Position numbers and translations under genes: made by a program | Assembly (NCBI RefSeq): GCF_963921235.1 | Contig: NC_086097.1 | Coordinates: forward strand, 174,532,001 to 174,596,000 | Origin: Mobula hypostoma | Lineage: Eukaryota | Reading direction: 5' to 3' | DNA length: 64,000 bases | Notes under the pieces: generated by a model | Databases searched by the model: none | What the model saw: the letters and a program-made list of their open reading frames with translations, nothing else | What the model was told of the DNA's origin: nothing | Shown: in pieces, positions 8,404 to 46,124 of the stretch | Numbering within the stretch: the stretch's first letter is position 1 | How the letters are laid out: each line of letters opens with the position of its first letter

Positions 8404-9648
8404 AACGCAAACAACAGGAATTCTGCAGATGCTGGAAGTTCAAGCAACACACATCAAAGTTGCTGGTGAACGCAGCAGGCCAAGCAGCGTCTGTAGGAAG
8501 AGGTGCAGTCGACGTTTCAGGCCGAGACCCTTCGTCAGGACTAACTGAAGGAAGAGTGAGTAAGGGATTTGAAAGTTGGAGGGGGAGGGGGAGATCCAAA
8601 ATGATAGGAGAAGACAGGAGGGGGAGGGATGGAGCCAAGAGCTGGACAGGTGATTGGCAAAGGGGATACGAGAGGATCATGGGACAGGAGGTCCGGGAAG
8701 AAAGACAAGGGAGGGGGGAACCCAGAGGATGGGCAAGAGGTATATTCAGAGGGACAGAGGGAGAAAAAGGAGAGTGAGAGAAAGAATGTGTGCATAAAAA
8801 TAAGTAACAGATGGGGTACGAGGGGGAGGTGGGGCCTTAGTGGAAGTTAGAGAAGTCGATGTTCATGCCATCAGGTTGGAGGCTACCCAGACGGAATATA
8901 AGGTGTTGTTCCTCCAAACTGAGTGTGGCTTCATCTTTACAGTAGAGGAGGCCGTGGATAGACATGTCAGAATGGGAATGGGATGTGGAATTAAAATGTG
9001 TGGCCACTGGGAGATCCTGCTTTCTCTGGCGGACAGAGCGTAAATGTTCAGCAAAGCGGTCTCCCAGTCTGCGTCGGGTCTCGCCAATATATAAAAGGCC
9101 ACATCGGGAGCACCGGATGCAGTATATCACCCCAGTCGACTCACAGGTGAAGTGTTGCCTCACCTGGAAGGACTGTTTGGGGCCCTGAATGGTGGTAAGG
9201 GAGGAAGTGTAAGGGCATGTGTAGCACTTGTTCCGCTTACACGGATAAGTGCCAGGAGGGAGATCAGTGGGGAGGGATGGGGGGGACGAATGGACAAGGG
9301 AGTTGCGTAGGGAGCGATCCCTGCGGAATGCAGAGAGAGGGGGGGAGGGAAAGATGTGCTTAGTGGTGGGATCCCGTTGGAGGTGGGGAAGGTATGGAGA
9401 ATAATATGTTGGACCCGGAGGCTGGTGGGGTGGTAGGTGAGGACCAGGGGAACCCTATTCCTAGTGGGGTGGCGGGAGGATGGACTGAGAGCAGATGTAT
9501 GTGAAATGGGTGAGATGCGTTTAAGAGCAGAGTTGATAGTGGAGGAAGGGAAGCCCCTTTCTTTAAAAAAGGAAGACATCTCCCTCGTCCTAGAATGAAA
9601 AGCCTCATCCTGAGAGCAGATGCGACGGAGACAGAGGAATTGCGAGAA
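8404..9648 (-). mobile_element. 5'-truncated Penelope-like element (Neptune-type): RT thumb, Cys-rich linker, GIY-YIG endonuclease, 3' pLTR
   Basis: ORF 8837-9163 TCESTGVIYCIRCSRCGLLYIGETRRRLGDRFAEH (GIY-YIG); upstream YPCKRNKCYTCPY; TSD gttattcatta at 8393-8403 and 9649-9659. Confidence 0.92.
8507..8542 (-). ncRNA. Minimal type I hammerhead ribozyme motif in Penelope pLTR (intact)
   Basis: Minus strand reads AGTC CTGACGA AGGGTCTCGGCCT GAAACGTC GACT: stem I AGUC/GACU, core CUGAnGA and GAAA, stem II AGG/CCU, palindromic ACGU, GUC cleavage triplet. Confidence 0.75.
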
Positions 9649-12600
9649 GTTATTCATTATTCATTAGTCAGGGCATGAAGGGATATAGGGAGAAGGCAGA
9701 CGACTGGGACTGGCTGAGAGGGAAATAGATCAGCCATGATGAAATGGCGAAGAAGAATCAGTTTTAATGAGAATGTACAAGGCCAAGTAAGTTTACAGAT
9801 GACACTAAATAGATGGTGTCATTGCCAGTGAAGTTGGTTATCAGAATTTACAGAGGGATCTTGATCAGGTAGGTGCTTGAGCAGAGCACTGGCAAATGGC
9901 ATTGATAAATGTGAGATGTTGCACTTTGGTAAGACAAATGAGGGTACAACTTCCACAGTGAATGGTAGTGCCTTGGAGAGTGGTGTAGAACAGAGGGACT
10001 TTGGAGTATAATTACACGGCTCCCTAAAGTGACATAAAAGGTAGACAGGGTGGTGGAAAAGGCTTTTGGTAGGTTGGCCTTTATCAGTCAGGATACTGAG
10101 TATAGAAGTTAGGAGGTTATGTTGCAGTTTTACAAGAAGTTGGTAAGACTGTAATTGGAATATCTTAGTCAGTTTTGGTAACCCTGCTAAAGGAAAGATG
10201 TCATTATGCTGAAAAGAGTGGAGAGGAGATTTACAAGGATGTTGCCAGAACTTGAAGGATTTAGTTATGGAGAGAGGTTGAGCAGTTTGGGGCTTTTTTC
10301 CTTTGCAGTGTGGGCAAAGGAGGGGTGATCTAATAGAGGTATATAAAATAATGGAAGGGCATAAATAGGGTCAATGTGCATAGTCTTTTTCTCAGGGTAG
10401 GGGAATCAAGAACTAGAGGGCATATGTTTAAGGGGAGAGGGAAGAGATTTAATAGGAATCTGAGAATTCTTTTTCGCCTAGTTGGTATATGGAACAAACT
10501 GCGAGAAAAAGTGGTTGAGGCACGTATTTTAACAACACTTAAAAGGTACTTGAGCAGATGTGGATATGAACAGTTTAGAGGTGTATGGACCAAATGCGGG
10601 CAAGTAGGACCAGTTTAGATGGGAATCTTGGTCAGCTGGACCAGTTAGGCTGAAAGGATCTGTTTCTGTGCTGTTTGACTCCATAACTCTGTGACTCTTT
10701 AACTGTCAAAAAATTGATGCATTTATTACTCCTACCATTGAGCAAATTGGTGCTTTTACTGACGTCTAGGACAGTAGGAGGGCAGCAATTGAAACAACTG
10801 TTGAGCTGCATTCATATACAGAATGCAAATAAGGACTGCACTTTGGCAACTTAAAGCAAAATATGCGAATGTTGAAAATTTGAAAGTGAAACATAAAATG
10901 TTGGAAGCACAGCAGGTCAGCCACTCACCATTTCAGATCAGTAAAGTGAAAATGATGCTATGAACAGCTCTCAGTATTTAGAGGCATAGATAATCAACTA
11001 AATGGGCCTGTGATTGTATGAAGAGTAGGAGTGACTCAGTGATTTGAGTGCTGCCAAGTGAAAAGAAGTGATAAGGAGATAAATAAAATCTGGATTCAGA
11101 GGTGCTGTGAATTGTTGCATGGAGTAGAAGAGGATGAGAAAACTGGAGGATCTAGCATTCTTGGAAATGTGGCCTGTTAAAAAGGCTGTTAAACTCTTGG
11201 AATGAAACACAGCAATAATAAATTTCTGCTCCAAGTAGCAGGTACTGTTTATTTCCAATACCCATGGTCGTTTAGTCCATTATGAACATGTACTTTCTGA
11301 GAAAAAATGTAAGTTGTGATTAAAAATTAAGCATTGCAAAGGACAAACATAATCATTTGATCAGATCATTCTTTGATGTCCAAAAATATCTCCAGTGATT
11401 ATTAGCAATTCTCAATTCTCTTATTGGATTGCAAATTTCTGCAAATTCTGTTTGTAGCTTGATGATATACAGCTGAGGGCTATTGATTTTCATCACTAAA
11501 TTTAAGGTTTTTTCATGTAGTCCAACTAGGACAGGCCTTTCTCTTCCCATTCATTAATAAAAATAGATCCCATATTAGATGTTTGATTAGTCTACTTCTG
11601 AATGAATTTTATGATTGTACATTTGACCATTGTTACCCTAGCTTCATTTATTGCTCTTGTTTCATTGGCCATAATGCCTGCTAGGTTTCGTACAATTTCT
11701 TTATCTAATATGGTTATTTCCTTTATCCCTGACGGTGCTATCCTTTTGCCTTTCAGATAGATGAATATTGAATGCATTCCTGTGGTCCTTCTGATTCCCT
11801 TCTTTGTTTGATTTTAATGCTTTTTCTATTTCTCTAGTCCCTAATATATCATTAGCCTTCTCATTGCACATTTTTTTCTTATGTGAGGAATTTGGGATTT
11901 TACACAACCTTTTTCTCATGGTCCTAGTTTGCTTATCTCTTTAATTCTTTCTGATTGCTGTTTTATCAGCCTGATGTCCCATCCAATTATCTGTCAATAT
12001 TTTCTTACAGCAGCTCTCATTGTAAACTTTTGAATTGTCTGTAATGATTAGTTATAACACTTGTCAAAGACTTTGAGCAAGAAATTTTAATTTCAATTTA
12101 TGTTTTATTTTATTACCTGAGTGCTGTTTAACATTCCTAAGGCAGTCTCAAGCATCTATTGAGGTATTCCCATAACGTTCAAGAATTCGAATTTTTCTAA
12201 TTTTAACATTTTTGTGATACTGCCACTGATACTGTTGCTTTAATATTGCTTTAACTGTGATTTCATTTAATTAGAGTTATTTAGCAATTAAAAGTAATAT
12301 TTGAATTTTCATGGTAACTGAAATGTCAAAATACCTCCAAATAGTTCATATAGTAAATTAATTGTTTAAGTAGCAAATGCACTGTACAAAATGGTTGATA
12401 TGACATTAATAGAATGGTTTTGCTGTAACTTCTTGTGAAATCCTTAGAGAACAAAGCTGGTCTCTTCCATATTGTTTTTATCAGATTCAGGGTAGCTTAT
12501 GGGTCCAATATTTGAGGTGCAAATCTATGGACTCATTGATCAAATGAAGACTTGGCTAAGTTTTTTTTATTACTCTTTTTCACCCTTTCTTTCTTTTTCC

Positions 12601-14039
12601 TTTTTGCCTGACTCATATGACTGTCACACTAGCCAAATTGAAGTGATTTTGACATTGGTCTATATCGTTAACTGAGTCAGAAGCCTTAAAAAGATAAGTA
12701 AAATGCAGTTCTTGGAGTTGCTCTAAATTTTTTTTATAAGATTTGCCTGATCTCAAAGATCACATCAGCAGTTCTTCATTGTACAATGGTTTCATAAAGG
12801 AGGAAGAAGTCAGTACAAAATAATTTTGGCAAGGAATTATTTTGGATTGGTGGATTGGAATAAATGTCACAGCATAGTCAGACTTATTCCCCATCTTGAA
12901 GATATTGCTAATCAAAAAGAGGTTTCTCTTTCCAGATCTTGTTTATCAGGAGGTAGCACCTTATCCAATTTGGAATAATTCTGCAAGAATACTACTTGAG
13001 TTGAGCACCTTGTTTTTCATCAATTTGATTGCGTGATAAAGCTTGTCAAGAGATGAGGCAGTGAGAATGGAGGGCAGGAGAGGAAGGGATATGCAAGGGT
13101 GGAGGGAATGTGGTTGCATCAATCATTTTTGTTTGGCGCAATGCCATGGATTCATTGGTGCTATGAGATTACATTGACTCATTGCTTAGAATCATTCACC
13201 TTTGACAGAGACACTGTCCTTGAGGATTTTGTATTGTTTTGCGAGAATAAGGTAATTTGACCATACTTGAAAATGGATAGGGCGGTAAGTGAACTTAGTA
13301 GAATTGAATCTCCTCATATCATGCTGGGGAAAAACCTGATGGATTTCCCTCATTTTTTATTCCACCTGTTCTTAATTTCTTGAATTTTATTTTGTACATA
13401 TTCCTTTGTTTTTAGTTTAGTTGGACGCTTTGGTGTGTGACAACTCACATTATGTACACGCTACTCTTATAACGTGTTGATAAAAATATAAAGAAATGAA
13501 TTCAGATAGGTTGCATATCAGTAGTGTTTCCTCTTCTTACTGAATAATTTGTTTCCTCAATATAATTGTTATTAGATGTTCTTAGCTATTTAAGAAATGT
13601 AACTGGTAGCTCCAATTCTGAGTATAATGTACAGAAAAATGATATAATGGCAAAATGGCCAAATTCAATACTGTAAAACAGTTTCAAAAATCTGCCAATT
13701 TCAGCATGTTTCCAAATTCTACACTTTAGCTTTGAAAGTGTTCAGTCTCTGGTGAATTCTGAAGATAAGTTAATGAATGTAATTGCAGTAACAGCAGTTC
13801 TGCACTGTTGATAAATTTGCCATTTGTCCTCAACTGTTTTTGGCTGAAATTCTTGGTGAATAATTTTTTAGAATTGTGTTTTTTTTTGCCTCTTCTATGA
13901 ATGAAACAACTGTATACTGATGTTCTGTTTCTGTGATAGAAACCGATTAAACATTTTTTAAAATTTATGAAGTAGTTATTCATTTTAAATGTTTTTCACA
14001 GGAAAGGAATAACTTTATTCTAGGTAAAGTAATCCCTCA

Positions 14040-14140
14040 GTAACACACACAAAATGCTGAAGGAACTCAGCAGGTCATGCAGCATCTATGGTGAAGAATA
14101 AAGAGCTGGCATTTCGGGCTGAGAGCTTTCATCGGACTGA
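14040..14140 (-). mobile_element. Older, degenerate Penelope pLTR fragment
   Basis: acacacaaaatgctgaaggaactcagcaggtcatgcagcatctatgg...tttcgggctgagagctttcatcggact is similar to the pLTR at 8445-8542. Confidence 0.65.
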
Positions 14141-14337
14141 TAATCTGCCTGCTACTCCCAACAAAGGATTGCGAGGACAGCCGAAGGGATTATTGGGATA
14201 TCTCTTCTTTCCATTAAAGATACTTATCAGAAATGCTGCAAATGCACGGCTTTTAACATTACCAATGACCCTTCTTATCCATCCAACAATCTCTTTGACC
14301 CCCTTCCCCCCACTATCAGGTAGGAGGTATCATAGCA

Positions 14338-14427
14338 ACACACATAAAAGTTGCTGGTGAACGCAGCAGGCCAGGCAGCATCTCTAGGAAGAGGTACAGT
14401 CGACGTTTCAGGCCGAGACCCTTCGTC
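14338..14427 (-). mobile_element. 90-bp Penelope pLTR insertion containing the hammerhead core
   Basis: Near identical to 8447-8537; 16-bp TSD aggaggtatc(a/g)tagca at 14322-14337 and 14428-14443. Confidence 0.85.
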
Positions 14428-15391
14428 AGGAGGTATCGTAGCATTAGGATGGGAAACAGCTTCTTCCTAAGGCCATAAGACTACCGAACTCCCTACCACT
14501 ATGTCAGACTCTCATTATACGGACTCAGGATTCAAATATTCAAAGAGCATTTATTATCAAAGAATGTACAAATATTGCATCCTTGAGATTTGTTACAGAG
14601 GTAGAAAAACAACAAAACGTGCAAACAATAGAAGTGAGCAACAGCATTCCAAACCAAATTAAGTCCTTAGATCAGAGTAGGCCCAAAGCCTCGGTATTCG
14701 TTATATTAGCAGGGCAAGTCGGTGCATAGTTTGAAGGCTTGAAGTACAGTAGCTGGGGGCAGTCTCACAGCATCAGTGTGCAGAGAGGGGAGCCCCCAGA
14801 CTGTCTGCGCCAGCATTTAAATTGTCCAAATTGCGCTCTAGGACCTGGGCCCGGCAATAGGGAATTGCACCAGGCTTATATTTTGCTGATGAAGAAGCCA
14901 TCCTCGACCTCTCCAAATCGGCTTGGTGCCCAGACCAATGCAACCTCACCTGACCTCGACACCCTGCCTTTCCAGTCTATGTATGCCGGCATTTAGATTG
15001 TGCAAACAGCAAATTGTACCTCACATTAGGTCCTGAGCCTCACCGTGGTGAATCGCTCTGAGCTTAGAACATGCCGACTAGCAATTCACTTTCGACCTGG
15101 AATTTGCTGCCAAAGAAGCTGTTCTTGACCTCTCCAAATTAGCTCGGCACTTTAAGCGATCTGACCTCACATCCAGGCCAACTGGATAGGCATCAGAAGG
15201 GGCTCTCCTCTGTCCTGTCTTCTCCCCTCCAAATCATTCACTTCAATCAGTACAGCTTAAGGTCCAAATGCATTGATTTTGCGGCACACCAACAGGGCAC
15301 ATCTTTCGAGTTCGTTTTGCCCTTCACTTGCCTGTTTGTTCACTGTTTGCAGTGGTAGTATATTGTAATCTACTTTTAAAAAAGTGTTATT

Positions 15392-17856: not shown

Positions 17857-18183
17857 AAAAAAGTGTTATTAATAATGTTCTTAATCGAATTCCTTTGCTT
17901 TTGAACCACCAGTAAGCTATCTCACGTCTTTGGTAGTGCCATCTTAAAATGGACCCATCATTAATGGAGCACCAGTTCATAAATTTTTAACTTGTATATG
18001 CACCTTATAATTTATTAATTTATTTGGTATAATATTATCTTATGTGTTGTGTGTGAGTTATATGTACTATGTTGTGCACCTTGGTCTGGAGGAACGTTGC
18101 TTTGTTTGGTCGTATGCCTGTGTACAGTTAAATGACAATAAACTGAACATGAACTTGAATTCCCCATTTTATACATTTGCCAG

Positions 18184-18367
18184 GATGAAGATGAAGTTGA
18201 TACCTACACCATGGTGAAGACTAGCCATGCAACCACAAGTACAATGAGGGCAACCAGTACCATGAGTGAAGGTGCCCAAACAATGATCGAGCACAACAGT
18301 ACCATGTTGGAATCAGATTTGGGGACCATGGTAATTAACAGTGATGATGAGGATGGAACCATGAAAA
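18184..18367 (+). CDS. STK3: STK3/MST2 internal coding exon (equivalent to human exon 9; regulatory linker)
   Basis: Acceptor ...tttgccag|GAT, donor AAAA|gtaagt; 184 nt, phase 0 to phase 1. Translation DEDEVDTYTMVKTSHATTSTMRATSTMSEGAQTMIEHNSTMLESDLGTMVINSDDEDGTMK closely matches the recalled human MST2 linker (DEDELDSHTMVKTS...TMRATSTMSEGAQTMIEHNSTMLESDLGTMVINS...DGTMK) rather than MST1. Confidence 0.96.
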
Positions 18368-18597
18368 GTAAGTAAAATACATTACTTTTTAACTTTTTAG
18401 CACTTCTAAGTGTTGAATACTACGGATTATCATTTTTTGCAATAATGCACATTTATAATAGTGCTTTTACCAATATTACTACAAATTCTAAGCCCTGAAT
18501 TAAAATGAATGTAAAGTAAATTAAGGGGAACTATTTAGTGAGAAGGGTATAGTGGATGACACAGATGCCATGAATGTCTTGTGAACCTTATAGTTAG

Positions 18598-18720
18598 CAA
18601 GGGTCTTGGCCCGAAACATTGATAATACTCTTTTCCACTGCCTGGCCTGCTGAGTTCCTCCAGCGTTTTGTGTGTGTTACTTGGATTTCTAGCATCTGCA
18701 GATTTTCTCTTGTTTGTAGC
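18598..18720 (+). mobile_element. Degenerate Penelope pLTR fragment
   Basis: aagggtcttggcccgaaacattga...ctgcctggcctgctgagttcctccagc...agcatctgcagatttt. Confidence 0.7.
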
Positions 18721-18845: not shown

Positions 18846-21378
18846 CAGGGGTGGCGCTGAGGTGGTGCTAGCTGGTGCTATAGCCCCAGCAGAAAAATAC
18901 AATAGCACCGCCACAGCCCCACCAAGAAATAAACTGAAATTTGACATACAAATTGCAGCTGCTTTGCTTTCTCTGTATAGTTTTGAATACAGCTTGTTTC
19001 TCCAGTTGATCTGGTGAAACGGCGCCCCCAATTACCACAGCACTCATGCAGCAATAAAGTTATAATCTCTGTCTCTGTGCTGGTCTAAGGTCACATCCAT
19101 TCTACACTTCTGCTTATTAGTTCGTTGTCAATGTCTTGCCATTGCTGTCCTCAGATCAGTTAAGCTGATCTAAGATCTCTTAAGGTGGTGATGTCACTCA
19201 CTCTCACTCACGCGAGAGATTGATAGTATACATCCAGGCGCAGATCCATGGTCTCGCGAGACTAATGGATGGGGCCCCCCCCCCACACACACACACACAT
19301 TGTGCTTTTACAAGCTAGCGTGGGCTTGGCATGTGCATTATTTTGGCCGGCGTGAAAAATGGATCGATTTTTAGTCAGAAAGCGACCTCATCCAGAGGAA
19401 TCAGTTGTGTCTCAGCCTGAGCCTGTCTTAATTGAAAGTGACATGCAGAAAGAAATGTGGGGATGAGGACGACAGCAGTTCATCGAAGGAATGTGAGGGC
19501 GAAGTAGAAGAACAAGAAATGGAGCGGGATTCGGAAGAGAACTTGGATGAAGCTGCTCATAGTGCGAGTGGGGATACTGTTAGCAATGTTAGCCAGCAGC
19601 CTGAGGAAGAACCCGGTCGGCCAGCATTGAAAAACTGCCCTTCGCAGCAGTTTGGCAATCAGCAAAGCAGTTTTATTCGTGGCTGGTTTGACCTGTACTC
19701 CTGGCTGGAATATTGGATCATGAAAGATACTACGTTCTGTTTTGCATGCAGGCATTTCGTGTGCGGAGGACATTGGTTCCATTCTGAGTCTAGCTTCACT
19801 GTCACCAGTTACCGCAACTGGCGGAAAGCTACAACAGCTTTCAAAACCCACCATGTGAGTGCAGCTCATAAGTTTGCTATGGAGGCATGGGCCGAATTCA
19901 GAGTGAGAAAACAAGATGGTTCAAGATTGGGAAATATACGTGACAAAGGACATGCAAAGATTGTCCAAGAAAGTCGTGAGTGTATGTGAGCAGTGGTTGA
20001 GTTTCTACGCTATACTGCATGCCAAGGCATTGTCCAGCGAGGACACCAGGAGGATAATGGATCTGGCAATAGGGGAAACTTTGTTGAGTTGCTCAGTGTA
20101 ATTGGGAAGTTTGATAAGACTGTAGCTAAAAAAAATAAGAGGATAATCCTGGAAATGCAAAGAACACCCATCACGATATCCAAAATGAAATTATGGGTAT
20201 TATGGCAGATATGGTCAGATGTCAAATAAGTGCAGAAATCAAGGAGGCTGGATATTTTGCCATCATGGTGAATGAAAGTAAAGATTTGAGTAAAAGGGAG
20301 CAAATATCAGTGGTGGTGCAGTATTTGAATAACGAAACAGTGCTTGAAGAATTCTTGCACTTCACTCCAGCAGAAGGGTTGGACGCAGAGTCGCTTCTTA
20401 AAAGCATTGAGCAGACACTCGCCCAGTGTGTTATTGATAAGAACGCGTGTATAGGTCAGTGTTATGACGGGGCGGCAGTGATGTCCGGGTGCAATAACGG
20501 GGTACAAGAGAGGTTCAGGAAAGAGGTCCTGCAGCCAGACCCCGGTGTTGTACAGTGAACAGCCGGAGGACCAAGGCACTTGACATCCAGAAAATCATTG
20601 ATGCTTTCACCAACAATCACAACAACAGATGGATTGTGCTTCTCTGAAAACATCAATGGTGAATGCAGTTGATTTTTAAAAAAATTGGGCCAAGACTAAT
20701 GCTGATTATTGTTATTATTTTGTGGTGGATACCCCATAGTCCTTATGTTTCCTGCAAATCCTAAAATATTACATTTACTGCTATTAAGCCTACTGGTTTT
20801 GCTTAGACTTCCAAGCAGTGATTCTGTTGATTTTTGTTTAAATTCAATAGCCGAATTAATTGATGCATGTTAATTAATTAATTGGTGCATGATCAGAGTA
20901 CGATTTGTCCAACTCCTGGTAAAGCCTTGAATCCGTTGTTTGCCTTATTTGACTTTAATAATGGTGTATCTTTTGGCATTGCTGAATATGTAATGCGAAT
21001 AGCAGTGGGTCCATGTTGTGTTTTTCAGTTGAAAAGCATGCATTTGACGCTGATTGCGGGATTCGTGCGTGATTCACGTTGTCCGCTGTTGCTCAGATGC
21101 TCTGTTTCTTTTTTTTGTTTATGCTCCTTGTAGCCCGGGTTGCCTCCGATGCTGTTGACACTGTAACAGTTCACTTCTATATTAGATCTATCAATTGCTG
21201 TTGCTTGTGAATCAACAGAGGCATTTATAGTAGGCACATAATGCTTGAAACTGACTTTTAACGCCATGTGTCTGGCCTTGCAAATACATATTACCATACA
21301 GCGCATCCCTCAGCACCATCACTGAATCATTCTGCCCCTCAGTAGCACAGCAAGAAAAAATCTCTGGCGCCGCCACTG
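18846..21378 (+). mobile_element. hAT DNA transposon (ZMYM1-like/Tip100-type transposase), internally deleted and disabled
   Basis: Imperfect TIRs caggggtggcgc / gcgccgccactg; perfect 8-bp TSD gatacaga at 18838-18845 and 21379-21386. Broken transposase from ATG 19359 to ~20647: TTF-type Zn finger (WFDLYSWLEY...FCFACRHF), RGHQED...GNFVELL, FAIMVNESKD, GQCYDGAAVMSG. Confidence 0.92.
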
Positions 21379-22524: not shown

Positions 22525-22718
22525 GCTCTTAGCCCCATCCCTCCTCCTCTTGTCTTCTCCTATAATTTTGGATCTTCCTCTCCCCCTCCCACTTTCAAAT
22601 CTCTTACTGTCTCTTCTTTCAGTTAGTCCTGATGAAGGGTCTCGGCCCGAAACATCGACTGTACCTCTTCCTATAGATGCTGCCTGGCCTGCTGCGTTCA
22701 CCAGCATTTTTTGTGTGT
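22525..22718 (+). mobile_element. Penelope pLTR fragment with hammerhead motif at 22625-22660
   Basis: AGTC CTGATGA AGGGTCTCGGCCC GAAACATC GACT; the ACGT palindrome is mutated to ACAT. Confidence 0.8.
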
Positions 22719-23719
22719 AATGCTAAATTTGCCTTTTATTGACTCATTTATTTTTCTTATTGTTTGCTTTATTTGTTATTGATAATTGGTAATGAGATAG
22801 TGACTTTTGCTGGGTTTATTCTGTTCCACGGTGATACCTCTCAATTTCTGAAAGGCCTGAAGTTTTTGCATGTTTCTTTTACAGTATTGTTTAGTACTTT
22901 CAGTGTAGGAAGTCATTTAAATGATCTTGCACTGCCTTGGTTGTCAGCTTTTCCCAAGAAAACATCACAGGAGGCAGTAGGTGATTAAGGCCTGTCAGCT
23001 AATGTTGGTTAGTCAGTCTCTGTACTAGTGTTCCAAGTCTGAAGTGAACAAATTCAACTTGAATTTAGTTAAATTGTGATATTCTTGCCACAACAGTGAA
23101 GACCTATAGATATCATGCATCTTCCATACCTTTTACAGTACACCGTACAAGAGTTAAGATTGGATTGAATCTGGCTGGACTTTAATCATCACACTGGCAC
23201 TCTGCTGCTGTTTGTGATTCTTTCCTCAAATTGCCTACTGAGTCTACACTGACCTTATTTACACATGTCAATGCCCTTTGGCTTCTAAATTGTCAGTTAG
23301 GTGGAGTAAGTGATAACACATAGCAGCTGCTAGGATCAACTGATCTGTAAAGGTTCTTCACTCTATTCAACAGAGATTTTCAAAACGGAGTTTACAGAAA
23401 CAATCTTGTAAGCCACATTATGATATGCTGAATTATCTATGTTTTATGTTCAACTCTTGAAGATGTATTCTCTACCTTGCATATATTTTTTGCAGTGCTT
23501 TTCAGATCTAACAAAAAAGGAGCCAGTGTATGTAAGGTTGACCTATAGATATTGAACCAAACTTTTATTTCTGATAAAAAATTAAATTTTTATTAGTTGT
23601 CCACAAGGCCATAATGTTAAAGAGTCTTTCCAAATGTGGGGCTTAATTATCAACAGCTCTATATCACACCTATCTAATAAGTTCTCCCAGAATTCCTAAA
23701 AAAAGAAACAAGATGGAGG

Positions 23720-26555: not shown

Positions 26556-26559
26556 CATC

Positions 26560-31469: not shown

Positions 31470-34400
31470 CTCAGAGGAGGGTGAGCAGCCAGCTGTCATG
31501 GTGCATGTAGGTACTAACAATATAGGAAGAAAGCGGGATGAGGTCCTACGAGCTGAATTTAGGGAGCTAGGAGATAAATTAAAGAGTAGGATCTCAAAGG
31601 TAATAATCTCAGGATTATTACCAGTGCCACCTGCTAGCCAGAGTTGGAATAGCAGGATGGCTAGAATGAATATGGGACTTGAGTGGTGGGGCAGGAGGGA
31701 GGATTTCAGATTCTTGGGGCATTGGATCCACTTCTGGGGGAGGTAGGACCAGTACTATCCGGACAGTCAACATCTGGGCAGGGCCGGGATCAATGTCTTA
31801 GGGAGATTATTTGTTCGTGCTGTTGGGGAGGTTTTAAACTAATATGGCAGGGGGATGGGAACCCACACAGAAAAGAAGAGGGAAGTGATGCAGAGACCAA
31901 AGCTAGAGTTAGTGAAGAAAAAATTAAGAGTAGAATGCATAAAAGTAAAAAGCAAAAATTGCATAGGTCACTAGATTCTAAAAGGACAATGAGTATAAGG
32001 GCACTTTATCTAAATGCCCGTAATATTAGAAACAAGGTTAGTGAACTTGTGGCACAGATCAGTACCAAGGCATATGATTTACTGGCCATTACAGAAACCT
32101 GGTTGCAAGGTGGAGATGACTGGGAATTAAATATCCAAGGGTATCAGGTAATACGGAAAGATAGGCAGGAAGGCAGAGGAGGTGGGGTGGCGCTCTTGAT
32201 TAAGAATGAGATCAGGGCGATTGTGAGAGACGATATAAGATCTACGGAGCAGAATGTTGAGTCCATCTGGGTAGAGATTAAGAATAGTAAAGGGGAAAAA
32301 AAAATCACTGGTGGATGTTGTCTATAGGCCACCTAATAAAAATATTGCAGTGGCAGAGGGGATTAACCAAGAAAGAACTGAGGCTTGTAAGAACGGAACG
32401 GCAGTTGTCATGAGGGATTTTAACTTCCACATATATTGGGTGAATCAGGTTGGTCAAGGAAGTCTTGAGGAGGACTTCATAGAATGCATCCGTGATGGCT
32501 TTCTTGAGCAGCATATTCGTGAACCTGCAAGGGAAAATACTATCTTAGATCTAGTCCTGTGCAATGAGACAGGTAAGATTAATGATCTTGTAGTCAGGGA
32601 TCCTCTTGGAAAGAGTGATCATTGTATGATTGAATTTCGCATACAGATGGAGGATGAAATAGATCTAAAACTAGTGTATTATGCTTGAACAAGGGAGACT
32701 ACAACAGGATGAGGGAGGTGTTGGCTAATGTGAACTGGGAACACAGGCTATTTGGTAGGACAGTTGAGGAACAGTGGAATACTTTCAAAGAGATTTTTCA
32801 CAGTACTCAACAATAGTATATTCCAGTCAAAAGTAAGGACAGTAAGTGTGGGGAGAGCCAGCCTTGGATAACTAAGGAAATAAAAGTTAGCATCAAATTA
32901 AAAGCTCATGTGTACGAAGTCGCAAAGAGTAGTGGGAGACTGGAGGATTGGGAAAACTTTAAAAAGCAACAAAGGACAACTAAACAAGAAATAAGGAAAG
33001 GGAAAATAGAGTATGAAAGTATATTAGCACAAAATATAAAAACAGATAGCAAAAGTTTATATAAATATATAAAGCGGAAGAGGGTGGTTAAAGTCAACAT
33101 AGGTCCCTTGGAAGACGAGAAGGGGAAATTGATATTGAGTGATAAGGAAATGGCTGAGGCATTGAATGACTGTTTTGTGTCGGTCTTCACCGTGGAGGAC
33201 ACATGTAATATGCCAAAGAATGATGTTATGGACGAAATGGGAGGTGAAGACCTCGATAAAATCACTGTCACTAAAGAGATAGTGATGAGCAAACTAGAGG
33301 GCCTGAAGGTAGATAAGTCCCCTCGTCCTGATGGGATGCATCCCAGGGTGCTGAGGGAATTGGCGGAGGTTATAGTAGATGCGTTGGTAATCATTTACCA
33401 AAATTCTGTAGACTCTGGGCAGGTCCCGGCAGATTGGAAGACAGCAAATGTCACACCACTTTTTAAAAAAGCACGTAGGCAAAAGACGGGCGACTATAGG
33501 CCAGTTAGCTTACATCTGTAGTCGGGAAAATGCGTGAAGCTGTCATTAAGGAAGAAATAGCGAAATATTTAGAAAGAAGTGGTTCCATTAGACAGGCATA
33601 GCATGGATTCAGAAAGGGTAGGTCCTGTTTGACAAACTTACTGGAGTTCTTTGAGGACATAATGAGTGCAGTGGATAGAGGGGAACAGGTGGATGTCATG
33701 TACTTGGATTTCCAGAAGGTGTTTGATAAGGTGCCGCACAAGAGACTTATAAATAAGATATGGATGCATTGAGTCGGAGGAAGTGTATTGGCATGGATAG
33801 TGGATTGGTTAACCAACAGAAGGCGAGGAGTTGGTATAAATGGGTGTTTCTCCATTTGGCAGTCAGTGGTGAGTCGGGTGCCGCAGGGGTCGGTAACTGG
33901 GCCCACAGCTGTTTATTGTTTACATTGATGATTTGGAAGAGGGGACTGAGTGTAGCATAGCAAAATCTGATGACACTAAACTGAGTAGAAAAGCAAATTG
34001 TACGGAGGATGTGGAGAGCCTGCCGAGGGATATAGATAGGTTAAGTGAGTGGGCCAAGGTCTGGCAGATGGAATACAACATTGGTAAATGCGAGATCATC
34101 CACTTTGGAAGGAATAATAGAAGAGCAGATTATTATTTAAATGGTGAAAGATTGCAGCATGCTGTTGTGCAGAGAGACTTGGGAGTGCTTGTGCATGAAT
34201 TGCAAAAAGTTAGCTTGCAGGTACAACAGGTTATTAAGAAGGCATACGGAATGTTGGCCTTTATTGCTAGAGGGATTGAATTCAAGCGCAGGGACGCCAT
34301 GCTGCAACTAAACAGGGTACTGGTGAGGCCGCACCTGGAGTGCTGTGTGCAGTTCTGGTCGCCATACTTGAGGAAGGATATACTGGCTCTGGAGGCAGTG

Positions 34401-34897
34401 CAGAGGAGGTTCATCAGGTTGATTCCAGAGATGAAGGGGTTAACCAATGAGGAGAGGTTGTGTTGCCTGGGACTGTACTCTCTGGAATTCAGAAGAATGA
34501 GAAGTAGTATCGTATAGAAATATACAAAATTTTGAAAGGGATCGATAAGATAGAAGTAGGAAAGTTGTTTCCATTGGTAGATGAGACTAGAACTAGGGGA
34601 CATTGCCTCAAGATTCAGGGGAAAAGATTTAGGACGGAGATGAGGAGAAACTGTTTTTCCCAGAGAGTGGTGAATCTGTGGAATTCTCTGCCCAGCGAAG
34701 CAGTTGAGGCTTCTTCACTAAATATATTTAAGATACATTTAGATAGATTTTTACATAGTGAGGGAATTGAAGGTTATGGGGAAAAGGCAGGTAGATGGAG
34801 CTGAGTTTATGGACAGATCAGCATGATCTTATTAAATGGTGGGGCAGGCCCGATGGGCCGGATGGCCTACTCCTGCTCCTATGTCTTATGTTCTTAT
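31470..34897 (+). mobile_element. Near full-length CR1 LINE: ORF1 SGNH-esterase C-terminus, ORF2 (APE endonuclease + RT) with stops and frameshifts, 3' tail
   Basis: VMVHVGTNNIGR...IISGLLPVP; YLNARNIRNK...AITETWL; RDFN; DKSPRPDGMHPRVLREL; DDTKL; LVRPHLECCVQFWSP; tail tatgtcttatgttcttat. Confidence 0.93.
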
Positions 34898-34899
34898 AG

Positions 34900-35170
34900 T
34901 CGCTAATGCAGTTCTGGCCCTTCAAGCAGCACCGCCCCAGCAACCCCCACCAACCCTGATTTAACCCCAACCTAAGCACGGGACAATTTACAGTGACAGT
35001 TTAACCTATCTGGTATGTCTCTGGACTGTGGAAGGAAACTGGAGCACCTGGGAAAAACCTACACATTCCATGGGGAGGACATACAGACTCCATTCAGAGG
35101 AAGTTGGAATTGAAGTCCTAACTCCAATATGCTGAGCTGTAAAATGTCATGCTAATGGCTACATTTTCCC
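34900..35170 (-). mobile_element. tRNA-derived V-SINE (HE1-like) remnant
   Basis: Reverse complement has ...tttcccaggtgctccagtttccttccacagtccagagacatacc...aggttaaactgtcactgtaaattgtccc, typical of the V domain; similar to 43470-43718. Confidence 0.6.
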
Positions 35171-35359
35171 GCCAGTGAATTAGTGACATTGACAACAGGC
35201 ACAAGGTGCGCCATAGATGGCAGACTTTAATATAAGGTTGGGAATTTTAACAGGCACATGAAATGTGTACATTTTATGGGTTTCATGAGTGGGCCTGTAG
35301 TCTTTTGGCTCTGCTTGCCAACGCTGAAGAAGTGTAAAAGTACTGAGCATTGTTTCTTC

Positions 35360-35554
35360 AAAGTTGCTGGTGAACGCCGCAGGCCAGGCAGCATCTCTAG
35401 ATCTCTTACTAACTCTTCCTTCAGTTAATCCTGACGAAGGGTCTCGGCCCGAAACGTCGACTGTACTTCTTCCTAGAGGTGCTGCCTGGCCTGCGTTCAC
35501 CAGCAACTTTGACGTGTGTTGCTTGAATTTCCAGCATCTGCAGAATTCCTCGTG
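35360..35554 (+). mobile_element. Penelope pLTR-only insertion with 5' inverted segment; hammerhead motif 35427-35462
   Basis: 35360-35400 is the reverse complement of ~35473-35510; perfect 16-bp TSD tgagcattgtttcttc at 35344-35359 and 35555-35570. Confidence 0.9.
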
Positions 35555-36015: not shown

Positions 36016-36143
36016 TAATTTCTGTCCCTAGTCTTTTTTTTTCCTGAGCTCAGATCTGTATTTCCTCCAGTTTTGGCTCTTGAGTATAAGGTAAAAACTA
36101 AAAGTATGGTATACTCTTATTTAGTTTTAAAGTGGTGTGTATA

Positions 36144-36903: not shown

Positions 36904-37162
36904 ATATAGAAAATAATAGAAATGGGTCAACCACCACTTCTGGCCAGTAAGATTGGAGTCTAGGTCCTTGATCAGAATTTTGAAATTGAGTCTGTACCTT
37001 AACGCACCAAGCTTCTGTATCTCCAGACCTGGCTGTGCATGTTTTGCGGCAGATGCCCATTCGCTTTGGTTATTTTGGAGAAATAAATGTTTGGAAGAAT
37101 TTTTCCATGTAATTTTAACAGGTGTGATTTGACCACTGCTCTGTTATCATGGCGTCTGGTTT

Positions 37163-39250
37163 AATATGGTACTACCGAACCCGTGCGACAGGTTACTGGT
37201 AGTTCGAAAGCAAAGGAGTTTAATTTGGTAAACTATCACCACAATCAATGAAGAGGCTAGCGAAGGCAAAGTAATTTCATGAGATGTGCCCTGCTAGTGT
37301 ACTGCAAAATCGACACATTTGGAGTTGGAGCTGTGCCGGTTGGAGTGGATAATTCGGAGGGGAGAAGACAGGACTGAAGAGTTCTGATGCCCATCCAGCT
37401 GGCCCAGGGGCAGGGTTGGATCGCTCTGAGTGCCAAGCCAATGTGGAGAGGTCGAGAACAGCTTCTTTGGCAGCAAAGTCCAAGTTCAAAGCTAATCGTT
37501 GAGCGGCGTCTTCTAGGCCCAGAGCTATTTGCCGCATCAAGGCCTGGGTCCTAATTCAAAGTACAATCCGCTGTTTGGACAAGCTAAACTGGAAGGGCAG
37601 GGTGTCGAGAGTTGGGCGAGCTTGGATTGCTCTGGGTGCCGAGCCAATTTGGAGAGGTTGAGAACGGCTTCTTTGGCACAAAATGCAGGCCCAAAGTGAT
37701 TCGCTGCAGTGGGACCCAGGTCCTAGTGATCTGCTTTTCAGACAATTTAAATGTTGGCCAGATAGTCTGGGGCCTCCTGTGTCCGTAACACTAAGGTTAT
37801 GAGACTGCCCCTGGCTGCTGTGCTCTGTGTCTGCAAACTTTATGGTGATTTGCCCTGTTAATATGATGAACTGAATACCGAGGCTTTGAGCTTTCTTTGG
37901 GCTGCTCCAGGGATTTGGATCGGAGATCCCAATTTCGTTTGGACTGCTGTTGTTGTTGTTCGCATAATTTGTTTTTTTTTTCCTCTTTCTTTGTGTGCAT
38001 TGGGGTTGGTCTGTTTTTAAAAATTGAGTTCTTTTGGGTTCCCTGCATTGCGACTGCCTGCAAACTAAACAAATTTCAACTCCCCCATTTCACGTACATC
38101 TGCTCTCACTCCATCCTCCCGCCACCCCACTAGGAATAGGGTTCCCCTGGTCCTCACCTACCACCCCACCAGCCTCCGGGTCCAACATATTATTCTCCGT
38201 AACTTCCGCCACCTCCAACGGGATCCCACCACTAAGCACATCTCTCCCCCCCCCCCCGCATTCCGCAGGGATCGCTCCCTACGCAACTCCCTCGTCCACT
38301 CGTCCCCCCCATCCCTCCCCACTGATCTCCCTCCTGGCACTTATCCGTGTAAGCGGAACAAGTGCTACACATGCCCTTACACTTCCTCCCTTACCACCAT
38401 TCAGGGCCCCAAACAGTCCTTCCAGGTGAGGCAACACTTCACCTGTGAGTCAGCTGGGGTGATATACTGCGTCCGGTGCTCCCGATGTGGCCGTTTATAT
38501 ATTGGCGAGATCCGATGCAGACTGGGAGACCGCTTTGCTGAACACCTACGCTCTGTCCGCCAGAGAAAGCAGGATCTCCCAGTGGCCACACATTTTAATT
38601 CCACATCCCATTCCCATTCTGACATGTCTATCCACGGCCTCCTCTACTGTAAAGATGAAGTCACACTCAGGTTGGAGGAACAACACCTTATATTCTGTCT
38701 GGGTAGCCTCCAACCTGATGGCATGAACATCGACTTCTCTAACTTCCGCTAATGCCCCACCTCCCCCTCGTACCCCATCTGTTACTTATTTTTATACACA
38801 CATTCTTTCTCTCACTCTCCTTTTTCTCCCTCTGTCCCTCTGAATATACCCCTTGCCCATCCTCTGGGTTCCCCCCCCCTTGTCTTTCTTCCCGGACCTC
38901 CTGTCCCATGATCCTCTCATATCCCTTTTGCCTATCACCTGTCCAGCTCTTGGCTCCATCCCTCCCCCTCCTGTCTTCTCCTATCATTTTGGATCTCCCC
39001 CTCCCCCTCTAACTTTCAAATCCCTTACTCACTCTTCCTTCAGTTAGTCCTGACGAAGGGTCTCGGCCTGAAACGTTGACTGCACCTCTTCCTGGAGATG
39101 CTGCCTGGCCTGCTGCGTTCACCAGCAACTTTGATGTGTGTTGCTTGAATTTCCAGCATCTGCAGAATTCCTGTTGTTTGCGTTTTTAAATTTCAAGGTT
39201 GTATAATTTATAATTTCTTTGATAGTAAATGTACTTCAAATGAAGATTGA
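37163..39250 (+). mobile_element. Non-coding retroposon (same family as 14527-17945) split by a Penelope insertion
   Basis: 5' aatatggtactacc; internal duplicated block ccaat(g/t)tggagaggt(c/t)gagaac(a/g)gcttctttggca; tail tttgatagtaaatgtacttcaaa after 39197. Confidence 0.65.
38080..39187 (+). mobile_element. 5'-truncated Neptune-type Penelope element with GIY-YIG (ORF stop 38752) and pLTR; hammerhead motif 39046-39081
   Basis: GVIYCVRCSRCGRLYIGE...LGDRFAEH; highly similar to 8404-9648 in opposite orientation; TSD aaatttcaa at 38071-38079 and 39188-39196. Confidence 0.92.
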
Positions 39251-39789
39251 AAGTAATTATGAATAACCATCTGGACCAGGCTAACATGTGCAATATCTGT
39301 GATGGATTTTTTCATTGTAATAATGCTTCTTTTGTTGGCTTAAATTTATATGTTAGATATGCTCCTGATATATAACTGATAACTGGAAAGATGCATTCAT
39401 CCAAAATTGGCAATTCTAGTACTCCCCATTCTAACATTTCAGTATAACACATTTGATGTTGAATTTTTTTAAGCTTTCTTACATATAGAAAATGTTTTAA
39501 ATCTTGCAACTGAGCTTGATTGCAGTCTTGGTTATTGTAAGTTTAAATGATTGAAAAGTCATTGGCTAGAAAAGCAACAATTTTATGCACTGTGCAGAAA
39601 AGTTTGCATTTTCCTAAACTTGTTCCAGATAAACACTTGTATTTGGAGTCTGTTAGATTGTGCACTGAGTTGTGAAGTGACAAGCAAAACATGTTTTGAA
39701 GCCTCTCACACAAAATTCATTAGTGCAGACAAGATGTATGAATGGTACAGATTGTTTATATAGAAATGGACTGTAATTCAGACAGTTAA

Positions 39790-41755: not shown

Positions 41756-41756
41756 T

Positions 41757-42640
41757 TTGAGAATCAGAATGACGTTTATTATCATTGACCTCTGTTGTGA
41801 AATTTTTTGTATTGTAGCCAAACTCCGTATAAAGTATAACCAACACACATCAAAGTTGCTGGTGAACGCAGCAGGCCAGGCAGCATCTCTAGGAAGAGGA
41901 ACAGTCGACGTTTCAGGCCGAGACCCTTCCACTGTCTTGCCTTCTTTATGACTACATCAATGTTTGGGGACCAGGTTAGATCCTTAGAGATCTTGACACC
42001 CAGGAACTTGAAGCTGCTCACTCTCTCCACTTCTGATCCCTCTATGAGGATTGGTATGTGTTCCTTCATCTTACCCTTCCTGAAGTTCACAATCAGCTCT
42101 TTTGTCTTACTGACATTGAGTGCCAGGTTGTTGCTGCGGCACCATTCCACTAGTTGGCATATCTCACTCCTGTATGCCCTCTCGTCACCACCTGAGATTC
42201 TACCAACAATGGTTGTATCATCAGCAAATTTGTAGATGGTATTTGAGCTATGCCTAGCCACACAGTCATGTGTATACAGAGAGGCTAAGCACACACCCCA
42301 AGCACATTTTTAAAAATCTATTCAATACACGCAATTGATTTACTTGTTTATTATGTTTTATTTTATTTATTATTTTTTTCTCTCTCTCTCTGCTAGATTA
42401 TGTACTGCATTGAACTGCTGCTGCTAAGTTAACAAATTTCACGTCACATGCCAGTGATAATATACCTGATTCTGATATATTGATTTGTCACCACCTTTAA
42501 TCCAGCCAACAACAGTGCTGTCATCAGCAGACTTGAATATGGCATTTTAGCTGTACTTGGCCTCACAGTCATAAATATAAAACGAGTAGAGCAGGGATGT
42601 AAGCACACAGCCTTGTGCTGCACCTGTGCTGATGGTGATT
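41757..42640. mobile_element. Jumbled Rex1-type LINE pieces with a Penelope pLTR fragment (41841-41929, -)
   Basis: SLYTHDCVARHSSNTIYKFADDTTIVGRI...FKFLGV at 41930-42294 (-); LINE tails at ~41757 (-) and ~42470 (+); pLTR truncated within the hammerhead core. Confidence 0.75.
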
Positions 42641-42959
42641 GTTAGTGTTGAACAGGTTAGAACTTGTCTGGGAATTTTTCTGTTTAGTAAAGCACTTTAT
42701 TAGTTTAACTTTCCGTTACTGATACTGATAAATGGCACCTGAAGTACTGATTAATCAAACTGTGGAGTTTTGACTTCATGCCTGAAAATTAAGGTAAATT
42801 GTGGGCAAGGGCTAAGATGCAGTGAGTTGTGTGATTCAAGTGAACTTTTACATGATGGAATAAAATATAGTCATTTGAAACTTCTGATTTTCATATAAGT
42901 TTTCTGGAGGGGTAAACTTTGCACTCACTTTATATTGAGCTGCCTATAATAGGTAAACC

Positions 42960-43425
42960 AGAACAGATGGAAGTAATTATACTACCTCAAAAGAGACCTT
43001 AGAGAATGCACTAGATACTTTAGAAGCACATTTCAACCCACCTAGAAACGAAACATCTGAACATTACCAATTGTTTTCTCAGTCAGGAGGAGCAAAAATC
43101 CTTTGACATTTTCTTAATGGAGCTAAGGCAATTAACAGGTAATTTCAGTTTCACAGGACTCCCTTGTCAGAGATTGGATTGTTCATGGAATCTGGCAGTC
43201 TAGTCTGGGGGACTGACCTCAGTGTTGACAAAGTTAACTCTGGAAAAGTGCTTAGTAATTTGCACAGCTGCAGAGCTATCCAAAGCCAGACTAGAACCAA
43301 TGGACAGTCAACGAAGGTAGTAGATGCTATAAAGTACAATGTAAAAGGAAGAACAAATAAAGCACATCCAAGGCTACATAGGAGGTTCAAGTATTGTGGA
43401 TGGCAACACCAGCAAGGTAAAAAGA
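42960..43425 (+). mobile_element. Decayed Gypsy gag-like fragment
   Basis: LEAHFNPPRNETSEHYQLFS followed by QEEQKSFDIFLMELRQL-like sequence and a KYCGWQH knuckle remnant. Confidence 0.45.
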
Positions 43426-43469
43426 AATGTTTTGTGTGTATGTGCATTAAAGATTGTGAAGCCATTTCT

Positions 43470-43718
43470 TGGTGGTCACGGTTGCGTAGGAGTTACTGTT
43501 GGAGTTCGGAGTTCAATTCCAACATCATCTGTATGGAGTTTCTAGGTCCTCCCCTCAAATATGTGCGTTTCCTCCAGGTATACTGGTTTAATCCCACTGT
43601 TCAAAGATGTACCTGTTAGTAGGTTAATTGGTCATTGTAATTTATCCAGTGATTAAGCTAGAGTTAAATCAGTGGGTGATTCTAGTCAGAAGGGCCTATT
43701 CTGAAGGATATCTCTAAA
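43470..43718 (+). mobile_element. V-SINE remnant
   Basis: B-box-like ggagttcaattcc, then ctgtatggagttt...gtttcctccagg...cccactgttcaaagatgtacc...aggttaattggtcattgtaa. Confidence 0.6.
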
Positions 43719-43720
43719 TA

Positions 43721-45222
43721 CAGGTTTCCCCCGCCATCCGAAGGTAGAGCGTTCCTATGAAATGGTTCGTAAGCCGAAATGCCATAAAGTGAAGAAGCCA
43801 TTACCATTTATTTATATGGGAAAATTTTGTGAGCATTTGCAGACCCAAAAATAACCTACCAAATCATGCCAAACAATACATAAAACCTAAAATAACGGTA
43901 ACATATAGTAAAAGCAGGAATGATATGATAAATACACAGCCTACATAAAGTAGAAATACTTTTCCACAATCATTATTGCATTGCTGTCCATAGCAAAAAT
44001 CGCACGCAAGCGCCGTCGGCAGAAACACGCGCAAGCGCTCTCCAGTAACCTTTAAGCTACGAAGCTGCCAAATCATGCCAAATAACACGTAAAAATACAC
44101 AGCCGATATAAAGTAGAAATAATATATGTACAGTGTAGTATCACTTACGGGAATCGGGAAGACAGCGCCGAGCACACGATGGTGTGTTAGGCTGAGTCGG
44201 AGTTTGGGTGGTGCAGTGGCCTTAACCCTCCGGGCCGCTGAGCAATACATTGCTGCGAAGAACGCAGGGGTCCAGCGGTAGCCAGGAGGTACACAGCACA
44301 TCTTTAGGAAAAAGCCAAAACAAACATGCTAATTAATTAGGTGCCGCCTGTAATTGTCAGCCCAGATCAGTGCCGATTTCCGATTGCGTTGCCTTTGATC
44401 TGGGCCGACAATTACGTGTCGGCAGCACCTAGTTAATTAGCATTTTTATTTAGGCTTTTTTCTTAAAGATGTGCTGTGTGCCTCCCGGCTAGCTTTGCAT
44501 CGTCTGCGAATTGGTATCTGTCCGTGGCCTGGGTGTTGGGGTGTCATCTGGTCACCTGTTTCCATTAGAGCAGGCAGCTCATCTTCTTCTATCTCTGCCT
44601 GCCTCGATGTCGAAGGTCGAGGTTCGTCGTCTGCTGTGGAAGGCTTGCTTGACTGCTGAACCTCGCGCATTTTTCTATCACACAGTTCTTTAATAAGGAC
44701 TCAAACCATCCTGCAAATATCCCCTAAACCAATGTACCCTTTCAAAATTAAAGTCGTACTTTATCATTACTCATTCGGTTTCGATTGTTATCCTTTTTTC
44801 TTCCAATTGCATCAGCTCTTCATCTGTCAGTTCTTGGTGATGGGATGCCAAAACCTCTTCAACATCATGTTTGTCAGCTTCCACAAGCCAAATTCACATT
44901 GTCCTTACTTCATTCACCATAATCAAAACGCTTAATTATGTCTAGTTTTACCGTAAGTGAACACCCTTACAAGCTCTTTCAGGCTTTTCCGATACCATAG
45001 AACTCATCTTGCAAACGGCTGCTCACAGGCACATGTTAAAACAAAGCAGTTCCGAATCCGGGGGAGAGCGGCTGCTTGGGGCGCGCTGCCTTTTATCGCG
45101 CGCTGAATTTTTTTTTCGTAACAATGAAAACACCTTCTGAAAGCGAAAACAGGGTTCTAATGTAGGTCTTTCGTAACAGTGAGGTTTCGTAAAGCGAACG
45201 TTCGAAAAGCGGGGGCCACCTG
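43721..45222 (-). mobile_element. Non-autonomous Tigger-like element, complete with both TIRs
   Basis: ta|caggtttcccccgc...gcgggggccacctg|ta; inverted copy of 25026-26555. Confidence 0.85.
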
Positions 45223-45601
45223 TAAATAAATTGGAAGCCAATGGAGAGGTCATCACAGAACTTTGTACGATGAGATGAATCATGCAGGGACTGAGTCAAA
45301 TTCACAGAGTTATTGAGCTCAAGTTCAATTCTATGTTGATGCAACAGGAACCAGTGATATCTCAATTTGATTCAAGATAAGGCTAACAATCTTGAGCAGT
45401 GAAGTTAAAATGAACGGGTTTTGATGAAACTCATACATTTTAAATTCGTTCAGCCACACAAATCACAGGTGCAAATACAGAACAAGTTTAGAAGGTTCCT
45501 CAATGAAATTCTGAATTTCAAGTGGTATATTTTATAACTCTAATAACTTAAAAGTAATTGAAAGAAAAACATGGAACTGGGAAATGCTGTGCTTAGTTTT
45601 A

Positions 45602-46120
45602 TACATCAAAGTTGCTGGTGAACGCAGCAGGCCAGGCAGCATCTATAGGAAGAGGTACGGTCGACGTTTCAGGCCGAGACCCTTCGTCAGGACTAACTGA
45701 AGGAAGAGTGAGTAAGGGATTTGAAAGTGGGAGGGGGAGGGGGAGATACAAAATGATAGGAGAAGACAGGAGGGGGAGGGATGGAGCCAAGAGTTGGACA
45801 GGTGATTGGCAAAGGGGATATGAGAGGATCATGGGACAGGAGGCCCAGGGAGAAAGACGGGGGGGTGGAACCCAGAGGATGGGCAAGGGGTATAGTCAGA
45901 GGGACAGAGGGAGAAAAAGGAGAGTGAGAGAAAGAATGTGTGTAAAAAAATAAGTAATGGATGGGGTACGAGGGGGAGGTGGGGCATTAGTGGAAGTTAG
46001 AGAAGTCAGTGTCCTCCATCAGGAAAGTCTCAAAGCTCTCCGCTTCTTTTTGGTTTCCAGACCTAATCAGTTTCCCTCTACCACCACTCTGCTCCGTCTA
46101 GCGGAATTAGTCCTTACTCT
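45602..46120. mobile_element. Penelope piece: inverted pLTR (45602-~46008, -) joined to an RT-region fragment (~46009-46120, +); hammerhead motif 45659-45694 (-)
   Basis: pLTR near identical to 8450-8860; + strand HQESLKALRFFL...STTTLLRLAELVLTL resembles Penelope RT. Confidence 0.8.
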
Positions 46121-46124
46121 TTTG

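Follow-up and report, generated by a model that had tools for sequence, protein, structure and literature searches.

What do hammerhead ribozyme motifs do in the introns of a vertebrate gene: do they cut the transcript in which they lie, or are they inert remains of the elements that brought them? The question is raised by a 64,000-nucleotide stretch of Mobula hypostoma contig NC_086097.1 (positions 174,532,001 to 174,596,000; hereafter the window), where six such motifs lie within STK3. We consider it highly probable that they are minimal type I hammerheads carried by a young Penelope-like element (PLE) of Neptune type, within its pseudo-long terminal repeat (pLTR), and that those lodged in the introns of STK3 are probably passengers without activity. 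The observation is real, and the kind of ribozyme-element arrangement is already known.

A scan of the window with a core pattern returned six exact matches and one unrelated match with one mismatch, whereas shuffled sequence gave a mean of 0.62 and none of 100 shuffles reached seven. All six cores have the positions and strands given in an initial annotation of this DNA, which had also listed four decayed or truncated copies, present here at 3347+, ~14138-, 18589+ and 41903-. We number the motif from +1, the A that opens helix I, so that cleavage is expected after +32. The copies and the pieces that carry them are as follows.

8507 to 8542, minus strand: minimal hammerhead, fully intact, antisense to STK3; the sole intact copy in the window
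8403 to 9660, minus strand: 5'-truncated young PLE, probably Neptune-type, with the C terminus of the open reading frame (ORF; linker CX4CxxC and GIY-YIG, PF01541, E=2.6e-5), 3' untranslated region (UTR), pLTR and tail
14334 to 14430, minus strand: short stub, +3 to +100, with abutting target duplication; antisense to STK3
22525 to 22724, plus strand: pLTR stub with the hammerhead at 22625-22660; sense
35358 to 35550, plus strand: pLTR stub with an inverted partial pLTR (35358-35400) and a 16-bp target duplication; sense
38077 to 39185, plus strand: 5'-truncated young PLE with part of GIY-YIG, 3' UTR, pLTR and tail; sense
41838 to 41929, minus strand: stub beginning at +10, the 5' half of the hammerhead core gone; antisense
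45603 to 46023, minus strand: 3' UTR and pLTR fragment with the hammerhead at 45659-45694; antisense
3357 to 3491, plus strand: older-subfamily pLTR relic, 5' half of the core lost
14039 to 14138, minus strand: older-subfamily pLTR relic, core decayed
18599 to 18716, plus strand: older-subfamily pLTR relic, 5' half of the core lost

The complete motif, as the annotation wrote it, is found only in the copy at 8507-8542 (-), one of the six; each of the other five has a lesion, that of 14398 being the one it had described. The copy at 14398-14430 (-) begins at +3 and lacks two of the four helix I pairs, that at 22625-22660 (+) has ACAU in place of the ACGU palindrome, broken by CpG decay, and that at 35427-35462 (+) has an intact core with one mismatch in helix I (AAUC). 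At 39046-39081 (+) the cleavage triplet is GUU, not GUC, and at 45659-45694 (-) the terminal helix I pair is lost. In the family consensus, the CUGANGA and GAAA..UH boxes are intact at hammerhead spacing, a 4-bp helix I and helix II can form, and the palindrome ACGU replaces helix III. We read helix II as GGGU-CUCG-GCCY; an additional A separates core positions 9 and 10.1, and the span that the annotation gave to the helix took it in. The pair 10.1-11.1 is G-C in the older subfamilies and in 19 of 79 young copies and G-U in 57 of the 79. The proposed assignment to the minimal type I hammerheads of PLE pLTRs, with ACGU for helix III, is thereby supported, the class being that of PMC4209133. A scan of the window against Rfam gave nothing at gathering score, so that Rfam offers no family-level support, and folding z-scores of the 36-mers were unremarkable (-0.1 to -0.9).

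The motif lies ~300 nt past the stop of an ORF with reverse transcriptase (RT) and GIY-YIG domains and ~170 nt ahead of the ORF start of the next unit. Elements in the window have the hammerhead in the 3' pLTR; in copy L103, elsewhere in the genome, each pLTR has one, and the first ATG in frame lies ~170 nt past +1. In the 1035-aa ORF of copy L101, RVT_1 (E=3.8e-5) and GIY-YIG (E=0.0045) both score below the Pfam cut-off, which the GIY-YIG of the window fragment passes; the ORF part of the element at 8403-9660, which has a target duplication of ~10 bp in a LINE-like host stretch, is 97% identical to that ORF. The translations show a CX4CxxC linker, a DKG motif and two cysteines between GIY and YIG, and the family has partial tandems, an inverted 5' pLTR, a tail and target duplications. 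By the criteria of PMC8557442 these traits fit Neptune or Nematis, which has the linker too, and the vertebrate host range favours Neptune (10.64898/2026.07.22.740005). The carrier thus appears to be a Neptune-type PLE, set apart from Nematis only by host range.

That this is a young, high-copy family in a vertebrate, as had been proposed, is borne out by an identity of ~95% to its consensus and by 58,406 matches, in a genome of 3.48 Gb, to a 31-nt core pattern tolerating CpG decay. A downstream anchor matched 76,223 times, against 677 for an ORF-start anchor.

The host gene was recognized from a window ORF whose best match is STK3 of cartilaginous fishes (91% identity to electric ray, 86-89% to sharks). 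Ten coding-exon matches, all on the plus strand, extend over C1:174,284,207-174,686,197, and two of them fall in the window.

18184 to 18367, plus strand: STK3 coding exon, residues ~316-378, with AG and GT boundaries visible in the sequence
63259 to 63435, plus strand: next STK3 coding exon, residues ~380-438, from tblastn limits, so that the splice sites are not exact

Every copy in the window is therefore intronic in STK3, in keeping with the annotation, which had further inferred that several copies are co-transcribed in one pre-mRNA. Since STK3 is on the plus strand, only the plus-strand copies are ribozyme-sense in its pre-mRNA, namely 22625, 35427, 39046 and two old relics. The claim of co-transcription is only partly supported, in that three young copies are sense, each with a lesion; the other three of the six, including the sole intact one, are antisense. 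The STK3 setting is incidental to the motif copies.

An effect on the host could appear as a depletion of sense copies, for which we analyzed five long genes (1.6 Mb; the sample for strand and conservation is 1.664 Mb, the STK3 region plus four CUB-domain genes, with strand taken from exon matches). No depletion was found among 174 hammerhead-bearing pieces, 87 being sense and 87 antisense. Sense and antisense numbers were 34:34 for copies with an intact core and 16:14 for strictly intact ones and, once inverted pairs were excluded, 31:34 for young and 51:47 for old pieces. STK3 alone has 20 sense and 16 antisense pieces, with a single strictly intact sense copy in the whole gene. In view of this lack of strand bias, an effect on the host is unsupported.

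One could still propose that sense copies pair co-transcriptionally and cut the STK3 pre-mRNA, the core at 39046 cleaving the GUC at 35427. These two copies lie on the sense strand of one intron, 3,619 nt apart, and both have ACGU; of the two dimer sites that they could form, one would have all four helix I pairs and a canonical core. Dimeric minimal hammerheads of PLEs cleave in vitro at a low but measurable level (PMC4209133), and those of metazoans are described as inactive as monomers and weak as dimers. However, the anole PLE hammerhead required the protein of its element, cleaving only in its presence (PMC11167929), and sense depletion is absent in STK3 as in the four other genes. Moreover, the nearest-neighbour energy predicted for the dimer of 35427 and 39046 is -5.6 kcal/mol, compared to -18.8 for the separate monomers. 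For the motif in general, the double-hammerhead dimer is predicted at -9.5, against -20 for two monomers, and the hammerhead-like monomer at 4.4 kcal/mol above the ensemble, the preferred monomer fold pairing GACG of the core with CGUC. In the young family, the hammerhead-like fold becomes costlier once upstream sequence is included, at 7-9 kcal/mol as compared to ~4-6 kcal/mol without it; these monomer runs used helix I in monomer style and not the dimer geometry, which was computed separately. We thus find cleavage of the STK3 pre-mRNA by paired copies very improbable.

Several considerations nonetheless weigh against our reading of the STK3 copies as inert. The strand test is weak, the 95% interval for the fraction of intact copies in sense orientation being 0.34-0.72, and a pair of control LINE families is also unbiased (64:80 and 85:85), so that these introns may tolerate almost anything. 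A cut inside a long intron need not lower the level of mRNA, and absent selection is therefore no proof of absent cleavage. In addition, the sense pair of 35427 and 39046 is separated by about one element length within its intron, the modelled double-hammerhead geometry would bring the core of one and the GUC of the other into a fully paired canonical site, and the folding energies leave out tertiary contacts of the core.

Excess conservation of the core over its flanks, which had been set beforehand as a test, is absent among inserted copies but present, over the directly neighbouring flanks, between subfamily consensuses. In 89 young pLTR pieces, a core position outside CpG differs in 0-3 copies and one within CpG in 4-11; there is no excess conservation of the core, which varies like the flanks. 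Inserted copies decay neutrally, mainly at CpG. Clustering of 204 pieces yielded five subfamilies, between whose consensuses mean identity is 0.87 over the 36-nt motif, 0.63-0.65 upstream of it, 0.63 at +37 to +54 and 0.81 at +55 to +100, a segment nearly as well kept as the motif. The better conservation of the 36-nt motif indicates that the master lineages retained it, with loop 2 free to vary. As to covariation of the stems, which had also been suggested as a check, the stems are invariant across subfamilies save for G-C/G-U, with no true compensatory change seen, and a count on 10 window copies was uninformative, its three two-sided changes belonging to copies that are truncated or decayed and carrying no weight as evidence. 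Four of the five subfamilies keep the canonical CUGAYGA box. An older one has the core CUGCCGA (A6C) with a UUCG loop 2; A6C agrees in 9 of its 11 sampled copies, and the genome holds 663 exact matches (e.g., C1:13251255-13251287), position 6 being C in 88, A in 7 and T in 5 of the 100 matches listed of the 663, as counted by eye. A6C is known from a phage hammerhead and sharply reduces activity in Mg2+, which in a hammerhead from outside this family fell more than 10,000-fold relative to Mn2+ (PMC7151607).

The ends of the insertions tell which RNA served as template. The 3' ends of the 89 young pieces form two clusters, at ~+95 to +105 and ~+127 to +141, which match the pair of internal RT start sites by which the tail of a PLE is defined. 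Almost every copy extends across the cleavage site, and 5' ends at that site were found for only 1 of 79 young (+33) and 1 of 104 old events (+34), or 2 of 183. By contrast, 36 of the 183 events (11 young and 25 old) have their 5' end at -2 to +4, which compared to the rate at -59 to -13 is a 7-fold pile-up for the young (p = 6e-5) and a 14-fold one for the old (p = 3e-12). Across the genome, 2,183 copies have a purine where the consensus has T before +1, compared to 360 before -9 and 372 before +17, the three patterns differing slightly in degeneracy; the excess at the helix I start is thus about sixfold over control positions, and the stub at 14334-14430 (-) is an example in the window. Among 32 non-inverted events, a target duplication abuts the start in 4, lies further upstream in 3, where the intervening sequence reads by eye as inverted pLTR pieces, and was not found in 25. 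In all five subfamilies a pyrimidine tract is followed by AG exactly at the helix I start, a context which we take to be both initiator-like and 3' splice-site-like (compare PMC2377424 and PMC3846280). No GT-AG joint ending at helix I occurred among the joints listed, which come from four contig sets of guessed or unknown type that reveal neither ends nor strand. At 39024-39047 (+) and equivalent pLTR positions, a branch-point-like sequence, a pyrimidine tract and an AG stand directly before or at helix I, and from this sequence sense pLTR copies could serve as cryptic splice acceptors in host introns.

Three other accounts of the pile-up were set aside. Capture of a spliced upstream exon is unsupported by the 32 non-inverted events, a weak test; 5' ends mimicked by unknown subfamilies fit poorly with heterogeneous upstream sequences and with a cluster present in the young family alone. 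Cap copying, as proof of a capped 5' end, drew on a G:A ratio of 1132:1051 before +1, above a background of ~0.7-0.8, and was rejected because the control at -9 is also G-rich (~55 G to 45 A in its list, by eye) and some of the G cases are inverted junctions.

The pile-up away from the cleavage site, together with the spread of the A6C subfamily, suggests uncleaved RNA as the template. We infer that the template is an uncut or re-joined RNA and that the cDNA often stops at helix I, either because an RNA begins there or because RT stalls. Our working model is that reverse transcription would start internally, at either tail site, on RNA uncleaved or re-joined at the hammerhead, so that every insertion, however short, would bear the motif; the ribozyme would be slow, would depend on a partner and probably on the protein of the element, and would target, if anything, RNA of the element itself. 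Copies once inserted decay neutrally, mostly at CpG. As a tentative extension, which we regard as possible but far from established, the element RNA would start at the first base of the hammerhead. RT primed 100-135 nt downstream would then run off the 5' end, like retroviral strong stop, so that about one insertion in five would be a hammerhead-to-tail stub; longer copies would come either from read-through RNA or from a jump to the 3' pLTR. The ribozyme would serve as a cap-proximal switch that can fold at the RNA 5' end but is sequestered by the upstream pyrimidine tract in host introns and in the 3' pLTR, and cleavage would be dispensable for spread.

Cervera and de la Pena (2014; PMC4209133) proposed a different cycle, in which the ribozyme cuts element RNA at both pLTRs, the product is ligated into a circle, and rolling-circle RT regenerates the site and yields partial tandems. 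Such a circle accounts for copies that span the site and for the 5' pLTRs of 19 ORF-start-bearing copies, chosen for their upstream extension, the shortest of which begins at -42 and the longest beyond -729 (of the 100 ORF-start matches listed of 677, roughly half, judged by eye, extend at least 30 nt upstream); it also agrees with the motif being kept better between the five consensuses than the adjacent flanks. Yet a circle has no 5' end, and the pile-up at -2 to +4 would need a separate cause, the A6C-core subfamily amplified well, and mutants of the anole hammerhead left insertion in vitro unaffected, with no reads ending at the cut site (PMC11167929). We therefore think the circle unlikely for this family. 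Retention of the motif mainly as a noncatalytic signal (a transcription start, a splice acceptor or a protein-binding site), with catalysis secondary or lost, would agree with the pyrimidine tract and AG at helix I in every subfamily, with a Drosophila virilis intron that ends at the 5' end of helix I (PMC4209133), with the conservation of +55 to +100 and with the loss of Mg2+ activity that A6C causes in another hammerhead (PMC7151607). This view seems to us quite unlikely, given that the canonical CUGAYGA box persists in four of five subfamilies and that the stems are constant but loop 2 is not, as one would expect of a ribozyme fold under selection.

Reading the motifs as hammerheads of a Neptune-type PLE on uncut templates contributes no more than a further host and a high number of copies, about sixfold the highest count of the 2014 survey, and indicates that vertebrate introns bear many intact-looking sense hammerheads without detectable counterselection. 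What bears on the role of the hammerhead in PLEs is a by-product, the insertion-end map: templates were uncut at the ribozyme site and often ended at its first base, and one subfamily multiplied with a changed catalytic core. Confirmation by RNA data would narrow models of PLE replication. Should the element RNA indeed start at the hammerhead, the amplified A6C subfamily would demonstrate that spread does not require Mg2+-driven cleavage, and tens of thousands of copies would form a fossil map of PLE intermediates, making hammerhead function testable. A literature search, with most subscription journals and Repbase outside it, returned no paper that treats the family in cartilaginous fish, describes 5' ends at helix I or reports A6C in a PLE.

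Other features were seen in the window. Three identical 72-bp tandem units at 1179-1395 match, over a short stretch, the Tc1-like element near 46941-46994, and Tc1/mariner-like transposase fragments at 45954-46999 (-), recognized by eye, the scanned part being without a Pfam match, are joined to the PLE fragment at 45603-46023. At 19432-20558 (+) there is a decayed fragment containing DUF4371 (hAT/ZMYM-like transposase). A long frameshifted LINE, probably CR1-type, with an endonuclease domain match and RT-like ORFs, lies at 31683-34900 (+) and served as a control for strand bias. Outside the window, C64:52886184-52965208 (-) holds many near-regular CUB-domain exon-pair repeats with identical scores, an expanded tandem exon array or gene cluster.

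The closest known relatives of the motif are the minimal hammerheads of metazoan PLEs (PMC4209133), which share the type I topology, the 4-bp helix I, the extra nucleotide between 9 and 10.1, the palindromic 15.2-16.2 pair without loop 3 and the location in the pLTR, and which likewise occur mostly as single dispersed copies from truncated elements, with some close opposite-strand pairs. They differ in helix II, which has 7-8 bp in Schistosoma mansoni and 4 bp here, in the partner of G10.1, here mostly U in young copies, and in number, ~4,000 in coelacanth and ~9,000 in Xenopus tropicalis against 58,406. The portions covered of that paper list U3-A8 but not A6C among core variants, and its text portions and two of its three supplement files name no cartilaginous fish, which the third could do. 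With the Neptune clade (PMC8557442) the carrier shares a single ORF with RT followed by a C-terminal GIY-YIG, the two cysteines inside that motif, DKG, the CX4CxxC linker, 5' truncation, an inverted 5' pLTR and an optional tail of ~35-40 nt. [quoted passage not shown] Finally, in the Poseidon element PAc of Anolis carolinensis (PMC11167929), the ORF starts inside the hammerhead rather than ~170 nt after the helix I start, and the portions covered describe no 5'-end cluster at helix I such as that found here; in PAc, as in the present family, two internal RT starts bound the tail, corresponding to our two clusters of 3' ends, and unprocessed RNA is the apparent template.

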